64,000 nucleotides of DNA. Source: Clostridiales bacterium (GTDB lineage: Bacteria > Bacillota > Clostridia > TANB77 > CAG-508). The notes below the pieces were generated by a model. That model was not told the origin of the DNA, searched no databases, and worked only from the letters and a program-made list of their open reading frames with translations. Position 1 is the first letter of the stretch, and the number at the start of each line of letters is the position of its first letter. A program made the position numbers and the translations under genes. This document shows positions 4,294 to 53,792 of the stretch, piece by piece. The stretch lies in NCBI GenBank assembly GCA_004554705.1, contig SFKS01000001.1, positions 8,186 through 72,185 of the forward strand, in the 5' to 3' direction.

Positions 4294-4938
4294 GTGTTTT
4301 TTTTGTATAATATTATTGTAATAGATGATCATCAAATGTTGAGAGATATGATTTCCGAAACATTAAGTGCCCAAGATGATTTAAATGTTGTTGCAACTTC
4401 TGGAAATGCTAAAGATTCTCTTGAGCTATGTAAAAAATTGAATCCAGATTTAGTATTAATGGATGTGTGTACTGAAAATAATTCAAATGGAATTGCATAT
4501 TCTAAACTTTTAAAAAAACAGTTTCCTAATGTAAAAGTTATTATTATGACAGGTATTTTGGATTTGAATTTTATAAATGATGCAAAAGAGGCTGGAGTTG
4601 ATAGTTTTATATACAAAAATATTAGTAAAGACTCGCTTATTATGACTATAAAAAATACTTTAGATGGATATTCTATGTATCCTAATGATAAAAATAATTT
4701 GTCAAAAGATAATATATTATCTAATTTAACAGATTCTGAATTAAAAGTTTTAACTTTATACTGCAAATTATTAGATAGAGATGAAGTAGCAAATAAACTT
4801 GGAATATCTGCAAGGACACTAAAATCTCATATTTCATCTATTTATGCAAAAACAGGTTATGACAATTTAGCTAAACTTTCTGTTTATTGCGTATCTAATG
4901 GTTTAATTGTTCCTAACCTTGAATCACCTGAAGAATAA
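4294..4938 (+). CDS. Orphan NarL/LuxR (FixJ) family response regulator; the likely true start is TTG at 4303
   Basis: The receiver domain has DD at the N-terminus, the LVLMDV phospho-acceptor Asp, a conserved T, and K in SFIYK. The C-terminus carries a LuxR-type HTH (SELKVLTLYCKLLDRDEVANKLGISARTLKSHISSIYAKTG). The RBS AGGAGGTG lies 6 nt before TTG at 4303. No histidine kinase is adjacent. Confidence 0.8.
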   Translation: MFFLYNIIVIDDHQMLRDMISETLSAQDDLNVVATSGNAKDSLELCKKLNPDLVLMDVCTENNSNGIAYSKLLKKQFPNVKVIIMTGILDLNFINDAKEAGVDSFIYKNISKDSLIMTIKNTLDGYSMYPNDKNNLSKDNILSNLTDSELKVLTLYCKLLDRDEVANKLGISARTLKSHISSIYAKTGYDNLAKLSVYCVSNGLIVPNLESPEE

Positions 4939-5547: not shown

Positions 5548-5828
5548 AATATTGTTGTAATACAGAAAGATTTTGCCCTAGTAAATCGTGATATTTATTT
5601 TTTATTTTAAGTAGGTTTTTCTCTTTTTCTAGTTTTTCTATATTTTCTATACTTGTTACTAGTTCTGTATTATTAAGTTTTATTTTTTCATTTTGTTCAT
5701 CTAATTCTTTTTTTAAGCAATATTCTTCTGTTATATCAAATGCTATTACTTCATTTTGGTTAATAATAAATAGGTAATATTTTTACTACTTTGTCAACAG
5801 TCTGAAATATAATTATTTAATATCTTTT

Positions 5829-7413
5829 TTATCTAGATTTTGGTCCTTCGCCAATAGTTGTATCTACATTATATAAAAGTGGTTCATAAACTGTTCCTAC
5901 AAACCAAATAGTTCCATCTTCTTTGTCTCTTATTAAAAACATATATGGTTTATCAAAAGTTAAATCGATTTCTTCTACAGGTACATCGTATAAATAGTCA
6001 AAAAAGCTTCCTGCTCCTGCTCCACCTATCCATGTTGCTGCTGCTGCTTTTATACCATCTTGTGTAAATTCTATATTTGCTTTGTGACCAGCGTCTGTTA
6101 TATATGTATCCTTGTCATCACAAATTCCAGTTAAATTTGCTTTCCCTTCTTCAAAAATATTAGTTATTCCTAATTGTTGTAGGTCTTTTTTTAGGTTTAG
6201 TTCATATTCAAATTTAAATTTTGGAATATATCCTGTAATTTTTGTTACTACTCCAGATTTAAAATTTTCTACTTTTAAATCCTTTAGTTTATTTATTATA
6301 TTATCTATTTCTGCTTTATCTATATTTTTAATATAGTTATCTAAATCCTCTGTTGTTGGCATTATACCAATATATTGTAATGTTGTTCCATTGTATTCCT
6401 TTAAATCCTTTGCAAATACTTTGATGTTATTATCTACATATATAGAAAAATCTGTGGTATAATCTACTCTCTTATAATTTGAGTTTATTGCTGGAATATA
6501 TGTTTCTAAATATTTATTTGCTTCTTCTTCTATATTACTATCTGTTAAATCTTTATTACAATACTGCTTAAACTCTTCTTCACTTATACTTTTTGCCCAT
6601 TTTTTAAATTCGTTTTTCACGGTTTCTCTTATATTTGCTTCACCTATTTCTTTAACTATATCATAGTTATTTATAGATGCTATAATTTCCATACCTGAAA
6701 CCTTTTGAGAGTTTTCACCAAATTTATGTTCCGTAGGGTTTTCTGGTCCTACCCAGTAAAATTTTTCGTGTTCATAGAAACATTCTACCGGGCGTCCGGG
6801 TTTTTATAAATTTATCTTCCCAGTCCATATCTATTGCTAGTGCATTTATCAACATAAAGACCGTATTCTTGTCAACTTCTTCAAATAAGTCCTTAATTAA
6901 ATTTAATGTTTTATTGCTTACCCAAGAGTTAAGATTTTCTGGGCTTGAGAAAGAATCAACTTTAACTTCAGCGTTATATTTGGTTTTTAATGTACTTATA
7001 TAACTATTTTTAATTTTATTTTCATATGAATCCTTTGCAAATAATGCATTGGCAAAAGCCATATTGCTATTTGAGTTGTATTTTTTTAAGGTTTCATTTC
7101 CTAGTACATTAGAAATTTGTAACTTTGATTCACCTTCTGTGCCTTCTTCTAGCATTTTTAATGCATATTTTATTGATAGTGGACTATAAATCTTGTTTGC
7201 TTTTTGATTCTCCATCTTTAAAAACTTAATATCAAAATTTGAAGTATCTCCTTTTATGGTTTCTTTGTTCTCACTCTCATTTTTAGGTGGATTTGCTAAT
7301 ATGTCAGTATTTGTTGTTTTGTTGTTACATCCTGTTAATAAGATAGTCATTAGCAATACCAATGCTGTAATTAAAATTTTTTCAAAAAATTTCTTCATTC
7401 TAAATTCCTCCAA
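5829..7413 (-). pseudogene. Serpin (serine protease inhibitor) lipoprotein gene disrupted by a frameshift near 6786-6803
   Basis: The N-terminal ORF 6772-7413 has a lipoprotein signal (LLTGC) and serpin N-terminal motifs (KIYSPLSIKYALKML, NSWVSNKT, VFMLINALAIDMDWEDKF). The C-terminal ORF 5829-6692 has a serpin reactive-centre-loop/hinge (GIKAAAATWIGGAGAG) and C-terminal signature (FDKPYMFLIRDKEDGTIWFVGTVYEP). The two ORFs join in one reading frame across a single-base shift at the GC-rich site CCCGGACGCCCGG. Confidence 0.75.
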
Positions 7414-7547
7414 TTATTTTTATAAATTTAAACTATAGTTAAATTTTATATTATATGTATTTTTTTGTCAATAAAAAGCAAAAAATTTTAAATAATTTTA
7501 AAAAAGTATTTTAAAATTATAAATTATATTATATAAATATATATGAG

Positions 7548-8543
7548 GTGTTATTTATGATTGATCGTAAAGAAAATCCTGAATTTCTTAATTCTTTTTT
7601 AGATTATACAATTACTATACTTAATAAATCTCCCAATACTATTAAAGAATATAATTATGATATATCAAACTTTTTAAAATATATAAAAAAAGAATTTAAA
7701 TTATCTGAAGAAAAAAATATAAAGAATATTAAAATAGATGATATGGATATTTCTGTACTTAAAAAAATTACTCTTCAAGATATTCATGGATATATTTCAT
7801 ATATGGCAAGAGAGTTTAAGAGTACTCCTGCTACACGTGCAAGAAAAATATCTTCTCTTAGAGTGTTTTTTAAGTATCTTACTAGTAAAGCAAAATTACT
7901 TGAAGTAAATCCTGCACAAGATTTAGAAACGCCCAAACTTGGTCGTAGAATGCCAAAATATTTGTCTCTCGAAGAAAGCAAAAAGCTTCTAGAGGTAACT
8001 CAAAGCCAAGACAATAGAAACAATATAAGAGATTATGCAATTATAACTTTATTTTTGAATTGTGGTATGCGTTTATCTGAATTAGTTAATATTAATATAA
8101 GTGATATAGATTTATCAGAAAGTAAGATGACAGTTATAGGTAAAGGTAATAAGGAACGTACTATTTACTTAAATAAAGCATGTATGAATTCTATTAATGA
8201 TTATTTATCTATTAGACCCCATGATAAGGTTAAATTTGATTCTCGTGATGCACTATTTTTAAGTGAGCGTAAAGAAAGGATTAGTAATAGAACTGTACAG
8301 GATATTGTAAAAAAAGAGCTAAAAAAAGCTGAATTAGATATAAAAAAGTATTCTGTTCATAAATTAAGACATACTGCTGCTACACTCATGTATCAATATG
8401 GTAATGTTGATATCAGAGCTTTGCAAGAGCTTCTTGGACATGAAAGTATTTCTACTACTGAAATATATACGCATGTAAATAATGAAATAGTAAGAAATGC
8501 TGTTGAGAATAACCCTCTTGCAACGGAAAATAGGAAAATTTAA
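7548..8543 (+). CDS. Tyrosine site-specific recombinase (phage-integrase/XerC-like); the likely start is ATG at 7557
   Basis: The C-terminal catalytic region is HKLRHTAATLMYQYGNVDIRALQELLGHESISTTEIYTHV (R...HxxR...Y). The RBS GAGGTG is 6 nt before ATG at 7557. Confidence 0.85.
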   Translation: MLFMIDRKENPEFLNSFLDYTITILNKSPNTIKEYNYDISNFLKYIKKEFKLSEEKNIKNIKIDDMDISVLKKITLQDIHGYISYMAREFKSTPATRARKISSLRVFFKYLTSKAKLLEVNPAQDLETPKLGRRMPKYLSLEESKKLLEVTQSQDNRNNIRDYAIITLFLNCGMRLSELVNINISDIDLSESKMTVIGKGNKERTIYLNKACMNSINDYLSIRPHDKVKFDSRDALFLSERKERISNRTVQDIVKKELKKAELDIKKYSVHKLRHTAATLMYQYGNVDIRALQELLGHESISTTEIYTHVNNEIVRNAVENNPLATENRKI

Positions 8544-8571
8544 GAGACAGTGAGATATATCTCTCTGTCTC
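8544..8571. terminator. Inverted repeat GAGACAGTGAGATAT/ATCTCTCTGTCTC between the convergent integrase and SH3b genes
   Basis: The hairpin has a 13-nt stem. The minus strand carries a U-rich tract, so it likely terminates the SH3b gene. Confidence 0.5.
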
Positions 8572-8579
8572 TTGCCAAC

Positions 8580-8915
8580 TCAATCACCATCACCAAACGA
8601 AAGTCCCTTTACGGAGACCCATCCATATTGGGTCTCCACCCAATACGGATGGGGGCCGTCCATATACTCATACCTCCTTCCGGTAAGATACACTGTATCT
8701 CCAAAATACAGTTCATCTATGATTTCCGAGTTTAACCCCGGGCTTGCACGGACGTTTAACCGCTCATAAGAGACGGTTGCACTTTTCCCTACAGATTCGG
8801 GGTTATACTTTTCCCCGAATTGGGAAAAAAGGAGGATTGTGCTTCCGATGACAGCTACAACTGTCAAACAAAAGCTGAAAAATTTCCTTTTGTTTGTTAT
8901 TCTGTACTTTTTCAT
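8580..8915 (-). CDS. Membrane-anchored bacterial SH3 (SH3b/SH3_3) domain protein, GC-anomalous
   Basis: The ORF has an N-terminal TM/signal segment and an SH3b-like core (SYERLNVRASPGLNSEIIDELYFGDTVYL...GWVSVKGL). It is about 45% GC against about 27% for its neighbours. The RBS is GGAGAAAG. Confidence 0.7.
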   Translation of the reverse strand: MKKYRITNKRKFFSFCLTVVAVIGSTILLFSQFGEKYNPESVGKSATVSYERLNVRASPGLNSEIIDELYFGDTVYLTGRRYEYMDGPHPYWVETQYGWVSVKGLSFGDGD

Positions 8916-9091
8916 ATAGTTTCTTTCTCCAACTTAGCGTTAGGTAGTTGGCACCTTGCGGGTCAGACCTATTATACTCTGCCCTAGTAACTATTTACTT
9001 ACTTATATTATACTATTATTTATGTCAAAATGCAAATTTAAAGGAAATAATCTCTTTTATTAAAAGAAGGTTATTTCCTTTTGCAGTAGCC

Positions 9092-9388
9092 TTAGATTAT
9101 TGGAATCATTAATTCTTGGTCAATATGCAAATTGCTTGATTCTAAATTGTTTGTATTTTTAATATCAAAAACTATATATCTAATATCTTTGTTTTTATAA
9201 TAATCATTGCTTGTTTGTAAATCACTTGCAATACTCCATAAAGTATCACCTTTTGAAACTCTTATAGTTGTATATTCAGTTTCTTTATGTGAAAAAGTGC
9301 TTTTTGCACATATAGTGGATAATGCAAAAACCATCAATAGAATACAACATATACTTTTTATAAATTTCTCAAAATTAACTATTTTCAT
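9092..9388 (-). CDS. LysM-domain membrane protein, YneA-like putative SOS cell-division inhibitor (start taken at the internal ATG at 9388)
   Basis: Signal/TM segment FIKSICCILLMVFALSTICA followed by a LysM domain (YTTIRVSKGDTLWSIASDL). The RBS GGAGG is 7 nt before ATG at 9388. The upstream TTG-initiated extension in the ORF track overlaps the promoter -35 element. Confidence 0.7.
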   Translation of the reverse strand: MKIVNFEKFIKSICCILLMVFALSTICAKSTFSHKETEYTTIRVSKGDTLWSIASDLQTSNDYYKNKDIRYIVFDIKNTNNLESSNLHIDQELMIPII

Positions 9389-9402
9389 ACATTTACCTCC
9401 TG

Positions 9403-9457
9403 CGAACAATATTTCGCTCGCTAAGTATATTATAAACGCTTGTTCGTAATTTGTCAA
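9403..9457 (-). promoter_or_regulatory. Consensus sigma-A promoter (TTGACA-17-TATAAT) with two LexA (Cheo) boxes
   Basis: On the minus strand, TTGACA is at 9457-9452 and TATAAT at 9434-9429. Box 2, CGAACAAGCGTTTA (9446-9433), overlaps the spacer and -10. Box 1, CGAAATATTGTTCG (9416-9403), sits between the TSS and the RBS. Both match GAAC-N4-GTTC closely. Confidence 0.7.
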
Positions 9458-9522
9458 TAGTTTTTTTGAAAAAATTTAGTTTTTTTAGAAAATGTTGTTA
9501 TACACGGAAAAATCCTGGTATA

Positions 9523-9550
9523 CAATAAAAAAGACAACGCTTGGTTGTCT
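9523..9550 (-). terminator. Rho-independent terminator of xerD (AGACAAC-gcttg-GTTGTCT + U-run)
   Basis: The hairpin lies 13 nt downstream of the xerD stop, followed on the minus strand by TTTTTTATT. Confidence 0.7.
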
Positions 9551-9562
9551 CTACATAAAATT

Positions 9563-53438: not shown

Positions 53439-53444
53439 TATATG

Positions 53445-53792
53445 AGAGTATATCTATAAGCCGGGTTCTGTCTTGAACAGTCATTTATCTAGGATATATA
53501 TTACTACATATCTCAAGCCACCAATTCAGAAGATGACGAGCAGTCTTAGCCTTCTTTTTAGGTGTTGCTCCAGATGGGGTTTACATTGACCCACGTTTGT
53601 CTCCAAACTGGCGGTAAGCTCTTACCTCACCTTTTCACCTATTGCTCTAGCAAAGCTAGGGCTGTTATTTTCTGTTGCACTTTCCTTAAGGTTACCCTCA
53701 CTGGACGTTATCCAGCATCATTGCTCTATGGAGCCCGGACTTTCCTCATGTAGACCCTTGCGAGTTCTATACGCGACTGTTCGATATACTCT
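53445..53792 (-). ncRNA. rnpB: RNase P RNA (ribozyme component of RNase P, Firmicute type B)
   Basis: The minus-strand transcript contains the universal P4 elements GAGGAAAGUCCGGGCUCCAUAG and ACAGAACCCGGCUUAU. The P1 helix pairs GAGUAUAUC (5') with GAUAUACUC (3'). The region is GC-rich and structured, with no credible ORF. Confidence 0.88.

Follow-up and report, generated by a model that had tools for sequence, protein, structure and literature searches.

A serpin gene in a 64,000-nucleotide stretch of contig SFKS01000001.1 (the window, numbered here from its first letter), from an uncultured Clostridiales gut bacterium of roughly 28% GC, is divided into two open reading frames (ORFs) by one extra C. 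The extra base lies in a CCC run at 6800..6798 on the minus strand, where intact alleles of the same species have CC. The break is genuine and is the commonest allele of the species, coexisting with rarer intact alleles. We consider the window allele to be probably a segregating null ('off') allele that recombination has spread across different backgrounds.

The first-pass annotation of this region had proposed that a single serpin gene was split here, with a lipoprotein signal and the N-terminal half in ORF A and the C-terminal half in ORF B. Pfam matches bore this out. ORF A matched the Serpin family (PF00079) over positions 13-180 (E=3e-23, 83 bits) and ORF B over positions 215-370 (E=1e-30, 107.7 bits), with a cut-off of 27 bits. 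ORF A (7398..6772, minus strand) encodes a 208-residue N-terminal serpin fragment that finishes with the out-of-frame tail TRTPGRMFL and a TGA stop. ORF B (6692..5829, minus strand) lies in the +1 frame relative to ORF A and encodes the 287-residue C-terminal part, which has no signal peptide. The ATG from which ORF B starts corresponds to an internal methionine (M236) that is nearly invariant across the serpin family alignment. The ORF B frame is open from 6803, and the segment 6803..5832 translates uninterrupted as KPGRPVECFYEHEKFYWVGPENPTEHKFGENSQKVSGMEII..., which agrees with the earlier observation that the 80-bp gap between the two ORFs is continuous in this frame. The linker thus left open, KPGRPVECFYEHEKFYWVGPENPTEHKFGENSQKVSG (6803..6693, minus strand), covers the loop and strands after strand s3A and includes the hypervariable codons 200-220.

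The position of the frameshift was obtained by alignment to intact forms, as had been proposed for locating the indel. A protein search returned the intact 522-residue protein P0001, which is 98% identical over its full length to the fused sequence. At the junction the window has exactly one base more than the corresponding DNA, L001: AAAAACCCGGACGCCCGG in the window versus AAAAA-CCGGACGCCCGG in L001. The change is from ACC-GGA to ACC-C-GGA at codon 200/201, in the loop after strand s3A, and the single-base frameshift that had been placed at this site was confirmed. A shift within the preceding A5 run, as implied by the fusion ...K-P-GRPVEC suggested before, was ruled out because the intact alleles show that it is the C run that is lengthened; the restored protein reads ...DKFIK-T-GRPVEC.... 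After the insertion the ORF A frame continues as ACC CGG ACG CCC GGT AGA ATG TTT CTA TGA. The two CCCGG copies at the site had been described as a tandem repeat and are actually separated by ACG.

The surroundings of the site are themselves polymorphic. Among intact alleles five versions of the loop occur at the frameshift position: NEHPVGC (AAC GAA CAC CCG GTA GGT, L087-L090), NEYPVQC (AAC GAA TAC CCG GTA CAA, L091-L093), YGRPVEC (TAC GGA CGC CCG GTA GAA, L094), TERPVEC (ACC GAA CGC CCG GTA GAA, L095) and TGRPVEC (ACC GGA CGC CCG GTA GAA, L001). The window has one C in surplus relative to all five. The GC-rich patch, earlier taken for a small insertion, is therefore one allelic state of a variable loop, TGRPVEC, and not inserted DNA; only the one C is extra. 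The codons at the site are indeed very rare, as had been noticed: in the 16,774 codons of the 53 other ORFs of the window CGG occurs 0 times, CGC 7, CCC 10 and CCG 15 times. For the mutational origin we favour a templated misalignment that would have perfected the imperfect repeat CCGG-ACG-CCCGG. This resembles templated mutation at quasi-palindromes and quasi-repeats (PMC7202029, PMC8794818) in that the extra C perfects the repeat, giving CCCGG-ACG-CCCGG, and in that the clustered nearby substitutions all lengthen an inverted repeat. It differs in that the process is put forward here only to explain how the mutations may have arisen.

The identical extra C was found in 17 of the 17 split-allele sequences that were read, i.e. 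in the window itself and in 16 contigs that come from independent assemblies of ENA and Logan (MEGAHIT k141/k127, SPAdes NODE, scaffolds), one of which (L105) comes from a pig gut metagenome. GC-rich motifs in AT-rich genomes may be error-prone, but an artefact of sequencing or assembly, one of the explanations offered initially, has a practically negligible probability because the same base recurs in independent assemblies made by different assemblers, is implied in hundreds of further contigs, and is absent where the same kinds of pipeline assemble the CC allele correctly from other samples. The exact ORF B protein of the window (P0135) was present on 186 contigs by one count and in 339 index blocks by another, and an identical copy of its ORF A protein (P0161) was present on 88 contigs. 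The intact 522-residue alleles comprised 12 distinct proteins on about 30 contigs, so that the split form is about 8 times as frequent as the intact form. A scan of JGI metagenomes for further alleles gave no match, and neither did a search of a plasmid collection.

Outside the species the gene is not split. The serpin protein search gave 3,338 proteins at E<=1e-3, and the best 120 of these were either conspecific alleles or proteins of 53-66% identity, mostly with a length of about 520-600 residues (450-803 overall). Fragments of 287 C-terminal residues were confined to conspecific alleles among these 120 matches, and the orthologues from other species, among the matches listed and in genome loci, were single ORFs of about 520-560 residues. 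Relatives in genome records were mostly gut metagenome-assembled genomes (MAGs) labelled Bacilli, Clostridia or Tenericutes, and the serpins of GTDB representatives reached at most 60% identity. The rarity of serpins in Clostridia, which had been remarked on, is beside the point. The first-pass annotation had stated that orthologues split likewise and under purifying selection as two genes would speak against its proposal. Half of this applies: alleles within the species share the break point. The orthologues of other species are unsplit, and selection on two separate genes was not seen.

What is lost with the frameshift can be judged from the predicted structure of the intact protein. An AlphaFold2 model of P0001 (predicted local distance difference test score, pLDDT, 83.4; predicted template modelling score 0.78) showed the serpin fold, and the top PDB matches found by Foldseek were tengpin, antithrombin, neuroserpin and miropin, with a probability of 1.00. 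The hinge is of the inhibitory type (P15-P9, G-x-x-A-A-A-A): GIKAAAAT aligns with GSEAAAV of neuroserpin, and none of the residues G448, I449, K450 and A453 varies among 75 family members. The hinge and reactive-centre loop, GIKAAAATWIGGAGAGSFFDY, are encoded at 6056..5994 (minus strand) and were assigned by alignment to neuroserpin, which makes codon 465 the predicted P1 position. Residues 451-465 of the loop had low pLDDT, as expected of a flexible loop. With its N-terminal lipobox, described below, the intact gene is predicted to encode a surface-anchored lipoprotein serpin of the inhibitory type. In the model the frameshift falls in the loop right after strand s3A (E181-193). The serpin fold requires both halves in one chain, and the single chain that holds sheet A and the reactive loop is broken after codon 200 in the window and continuous in P0001 and P0121-P0134. 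Because of this general serpin architecture the truncated ORF A product, which has no s4C/s3C, sheet B, s5A or reactive loop, cannot function as an inhibitor.

Compared with known bacterial serpins the intact protein is recognizable but distinct. The miropin of Tannerella forsythia (5ncs) and tengpin (2pee) were matched by Foldseek with E values of about 1e-21 to 1e-23 and target template modelling scores of 0.7-0.8. We take miropin to be a lipoprotein too. The hinge of the GIKAAAAT type and the exposed loop are further points of likeness to miropin, tengpin and the siropins of the gut bacterium Eubacterium siraeum (PMC5127057), as is the occurrence in gut-associated bacteria. In contrast to solved serpins, the gene described here carries a family-specific helical insertion of about 60-100 residues between s3C and s2B (6659..6483, minus strand; residues ~247-305 of the intact protein), which was modelled as three helices with a pLDDT of about 90 and contains a variability hot spot at codons 271-287. 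It further differs from known bacterial serpins in its extreme within-species variability at the predicted P1 and in the loop after s3A, and in the frameshift of the window gene. The helical insertion of about 60-100 residues was carried by all 75 proteins from related gut MAGs in the family alignment A2, which also share a nearly invariant segment, FDYLYDVPVEEIDLTFDKPYMF, behind the variable P1 region. In some family members an N-terminal zinc-ribbon (PF13240) takes the place of the lipobox. Searches of the PDB with the family returned distant serpins only; structures or biochemical data on the subfamily were not sought beyond the PDB.

The variable codons of the gene form four clusters, at 200-220, 271-287, 454-465 and 511-520. 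Codon 465, which aligns with P1 of neuroserpin, occurs as F, S, G, L or P. The pairwise ratio of non-synonymous to synonymous substitution rates (dN/dS) was often 1 or more, also for pairs of intact alleles: L091 and L094, both intact, differ by 0.5 synonymous and 22.5 non-synonymous changes, and the window and L001 by 0 and 11, respectively. In our best explanation, diversifying selection acts on the gene at its protease-facing surfaces. A diversity-generating retroelement as the source of the variability was rejected, since the window has no template repeat and the variable positions show no preference for adenine. The 64-kb window, in which reverse-transcriptase genes were not searched for, contains no duplicate of any stretch of the gene.

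Recombination within the gene is extensive. The four-gamete test (Hudson-Kaplan Rm) gave a minimum of 13 recombination events for 16 alleles. The frameshift state was incompatible, with all four gametes present, with 47 of the 60 informative sites, and it therefore occurs on many backgrounds, including two N-terminal haplotypes that are 4% apart and two gene arrangements. Flanking-gene polymorphism among carriers of P0135 gave no date for the frameshift because these strains, chosen by their identical ORF B, are too close to one another.

The events leading to the window allele can be pictured as follows. Addition of one C to the CC run at codon 200/201 would break the frame, and translation from the normal start would end nine codons later, yielding a 208-residue fragment without the reactive-centre loop. 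ORF B would be no more than what is left of the gene. Homologous recombination would move the frameshift among the many backgrounds of a diversifying gene, and exchange with intact alleles would preserve the sequence outside the lesion. That the lesion exists, is genuine and is frequent, and that the gene is mosaic and hypervariable, is observed; the loss of function is what we infer. Since ORF B lacks a signal peptide and starts at a conserved internal methionine, the allele is most likely null. Drift may account for the high frequency of the split allele, or host immunity or phage may select against a surface protein that is exposed and rapidly diversifying.

Rare secondary damage is suggestive of a null allele. 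Within the gene, a single change separates the split allele L096 from the window allele: codon 417 has gone from GAA to TAA. In addition, the ribosome-binding site of L096 has changed from GGAGG to GGAGA. Other split alleles carry N185D at a family-invariant residue (P0170) or G410V (P0140). Private substitutions fell at family-conserved positions in 3 of 13 cases in split alleles and in 0 of 3 cases in intact alleles; as such positions make up 35% of all, the value for split alleles is about the neutral expectation, with small numbers. The truncation of the downstream terminator in window-type alleles was also counted on this side. Separately, L097 was considered as a second decayed allele and set aside. 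In this contig of about 2x coverage (1448..2311) ORF B is broken again by a scrambled 37-nt patch at gene nucleotides 1227-1263 (about codons 409-421), which may be a small inversion or an assembly artefact and looks like the latter.

Several observations weigh against a simple loss of function. Nearly all split alleles keep both ORFs open together with the promoter and the ribosome-binding site: 33 different ORF B variants have a length of exactly 287 residues, and 16 ORF A variants one of exactly 208 residues. The split allele predominates on two or more gene arrangements, which is unusual for simple loss. Values of dN/dS do not tell decay from function here, as they are 1 or more among intact alleles too. 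The signs of decay come from single contigs and may include assembly errors. Finally, the site resembles a +1 recoding site, with an unused CGG followed by GGA and a nearby hairpin. The initial suggestion of a recent pseudogene thus survives in part: it is close to the null allele that we favour, but it did not foresee a high-frequency polymorphism on many backgrounds, and it takes no account of a possible +1 shift.

Such a corrective +1 shift is unlikely in our view, although several features of the site would fit it. The CGG codon of the ORF A frame (ACC CGG A, with CGG at 6798..6796 on the minus strand) is the sole in-frame CGG of the 64-kb window, and its +1 codon is GGA. A ribosome with tRNA-Thr on ACC in the P site would stall on CGG, for which a cognate tRNA may be missing, the abundant Gly-tRNA would read the overlapping GGA, and the extra C would be skipped. 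If so, the split allele would make exactly the intact TGRPVEC protein, at a reduced or condition-dependent level, and would not be null. The shift would yield the trans-frame peptide ...DKFIKTGRPVECFYEHEK..., in tryptic form TGRPVECFYEHEK or FIKTGRPVECFYEHEK, while termination without a shift would yield a product ending in ...FIKTRTPGRMFL.

The codon usage of the window agrees with this mechanism. Within the same 53 ORFs that lack CGG in frame, the trinucleotide is found 22 times in one of the remaining frames and 41 times in the other (63 in total), and the serpin site is unique in the window as a place where a long frame meets a long +1 frame at CGG. GGA is the commonest Gly codon (625 of 16,774, or 37 per 1000). 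The sequence ACC CGG ACG CCC was kept in 17 of 17 split DNA sequences and in 16 of 16 ORF A variants, all of a single species, which makes this a weak test of conservation, and the allele is the majority form and mostly stays open. In glass-sponge mitochondria +1 frameshifting is reported to take place at extremely rare CGG_(A) or UGG_(A) sites that arose by insertion of T or C 5' of GGA (PMC5009743). The present site has the same CGG_A motif, with one C inserted just 5' of GGA to give an essentially unused CGG, and skipping of the inserted base would likewise restore the protein exactly. The sponge case is mitochondrial, and the shift there was deduced from the conservation of essential genes, whereas here the site is found in a bacterium, in a non-essential polymorphic gene with coexisting intact alleles, and the shift is conjectural. 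Loss of CGG has been described for Mycoplasma capricolum, which has a genome of 25% GC (PMC4695839). The other Arg codons of the window were CGC 7, CGA 19, CGT 32, AGG 52 and AGA 429 times, and CGG may be unassigned or nearly so in this organism. The window contains no tRNA genes.

A predicted RNA hairpin (6793..6751, minus strand), which begins 2-3 nt 3' of CGG and has the ORF A TGA in its loop, could also favour a shift. Its energy was -20.5 kcal/mol in window-type split alleles versus -8 to -17 in other alleles, with a z value of -2.07. Four substitutions in the junction region are confined to split alleles (TGG to TTC, GAC to TAC and CCG to CCA), and all four strengthen the hairpin, whose energy goes from -16.2 to -20.5/-21.2 kcal/mol; in a post hoc test, 2-3% of trials with random sets of 3-4 substitutions gained as much. 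Against this, the whole analysis of the hairpin was made post hoc, AT mutation pressure would predict three of the four changes, which are G to A/T, and a weaker hairpin is present in intact alleles too. Template switching at quasi-palindromes can also give rise to clusters of this kind with no selection involved (PMC8794818, PMC7202029). Furthermore, a frameshift in a GC-rich patch of an AT-rich gene exposes rare codons anyway, so the CGG is perhaps a by-product, and re-pairing from ACC to CCC is imperfect. No Shine-Dalgarno-like stimulator was seen upstream of the site on reading the sequence, and some split alleles carry the secondary damage described above. The hairpin and the CGG codon are no more than suggestive of recoding. 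We know of no bacterial precedent for corrective +1 frameshifting of this kind, for which no search was made.

A phase-variable locus had also been proposed. Reversible on/off switching, in which the C tract would gain or lose a base or short recombination patches would swap the loop, is in our view distinctly improbable. Both states coexist in the species, L001 equals the frameshift junction minus exactly one C, and the protein P0132 (L095) is intact yet matches the window allele at every one of the 287 ORF B residues. Recombination in the gene is heavy, and a variable surface protein is the usual kind of phase-variable gene. The likeness to the phase-variable homopolymer genes of Neisseria, Haemophilus and Campylobacter lies in a surface protein that occurs in both frame states with a one-base homopolymer difference. 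In those loci, the tracts that slip at useful rates are far longer than C2/C3. Here the tract has 2-3 bases, while a typical slipping tract has 6 or more units, and no background that is otherwise the same carries both states. With a tract of only C3, phase variation has poor support. No allele pair differs by the C alone: L001 has the 11 further non-synonymous sites relative to the window allele, and L095 has four other nucleotides within 45 nt of the site. The terminator that is cut short in the window type is complete in both L001 and L095. Across many samples, moreover, the on:off ratio stays at about 1:8.

A genuine two-gene arrangement, with ORF A and ORF B translated separately into a two-chain serpin, is very unlikely. 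Both ORFs are open at fixed lengths in most alleles, as such a protein would need, but ORF A is a predicted exported lipoprotein and ORF B has no signal peptide, so that the chains would end up in different compartments; a functional two-chain serpin was rejected on this topology. The ORF B start is the nearly invariant internal methionine mentioned above, and inspection of the sequence showed nothing like a Shine-Dalgarno element at the typical distance before it. Separate translation would also lose 35 linker residues, including the conserved Y208, H210, E211, W215 and F226, and the split is seen in no other species among the matches listed and the genome loci.

The program listing gave ORF A as 7413..6772 from a TTG, and the likelier start is the ATG at 7398, from which the N-terminus reads MKKFFEKILITALVLLMTILLTGC. 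A ribosome-binding site GGAGG (7411..7407, minus strand), read from the sequence, lies 8 nt upstream of this ATG. The spacer that separates the serpin from the recombinase gene contains a promoter-like site, TTGACA-17-TAAAAT (7471..7443, minus strand), with 11 of 12 consensus matches and the top score of the region; a promoter function is suggested by the consensus match. The translation has a signal peptide with the lipobox LLTG-C24 (7398..7327, minus strand), whose processing is likewise suggested by the motif: MKKFFEKILITALVLLMTILLTG-C24 agrees with [LVI][ASTVI][GAS]C, and lipidation is predicted. On the 3' side (5828..5776, minus strand) only the 5' half of a terminator hairpin is present. 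The 3' half and T-run that other alleles have are absent from the window, with a rearrangement breakpoint near 5776, and terminator detection in the window found none.

The serpin forms one of two adjacent modules whose order is swapped between strains (window 5776..9555; L087 4935..8747; also L084, L091 and L094). Module S is the serpin (7407..5776), and module M consists of a LysM-like ORF and a tyrosine recombinase of 328-331 residues (9504..7479). The window and L098-L107 have the order recombinase-293, M, S. L087, L084, L091 and L094 have recombinase-293, S, M and then differing cargo, either Phd/ParE and RhuM or PCC and ABC genes. Identity between the arrangements was 98.7% in the flanks, 96% in S and only 84-92% in M. 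The breakpoints of the swap lie 9 nt before the serpin ATG and within the loop of the serpin terminator, and because of these positions the promoter and ribosome-binding site differ between arrangements (three upstream types). The S/M region looks like a recombinase-associated variable island. Beside it, a response-regulator gene (Response_reg and GerE) is split in L102 (7755..8391) into ORFs of 130 and 75 residues; its equivalent in the window (4294..4938, plus strand) is intact, as it is in other loci. Elsewhere in the window, the bacterial RNase P RNA class A (53441..53792, minus strand; 279 bits, full length) was the sole Rfam family detected. The minus strand carries 51 of the 54 long ORFs and the GC skew is negative throughout. 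The window seems to fall inside a single replichore of a chromosome with low GC (25-34%).

A null allele is an ordinary kind of event, and the present case stands out by its unusually clear population picture. The surface serpin of a gut commensal would be off in most strains while its predicted P1 and the neighbouring loops diversify fast. Such a pattern suggests that proteases of host or dietary origin, immunity or phage select on the gene strongly and in a fluctuating manner. Calls on the presence or absence of gut 'serpinome' genes would depend on the allele state. Should the +1 shift prove true, the gene would be a natural bacterial chromosomal case of corrective frameshifting at an unassigned sense codon, and it would bear on codon unassignment and codon capture.

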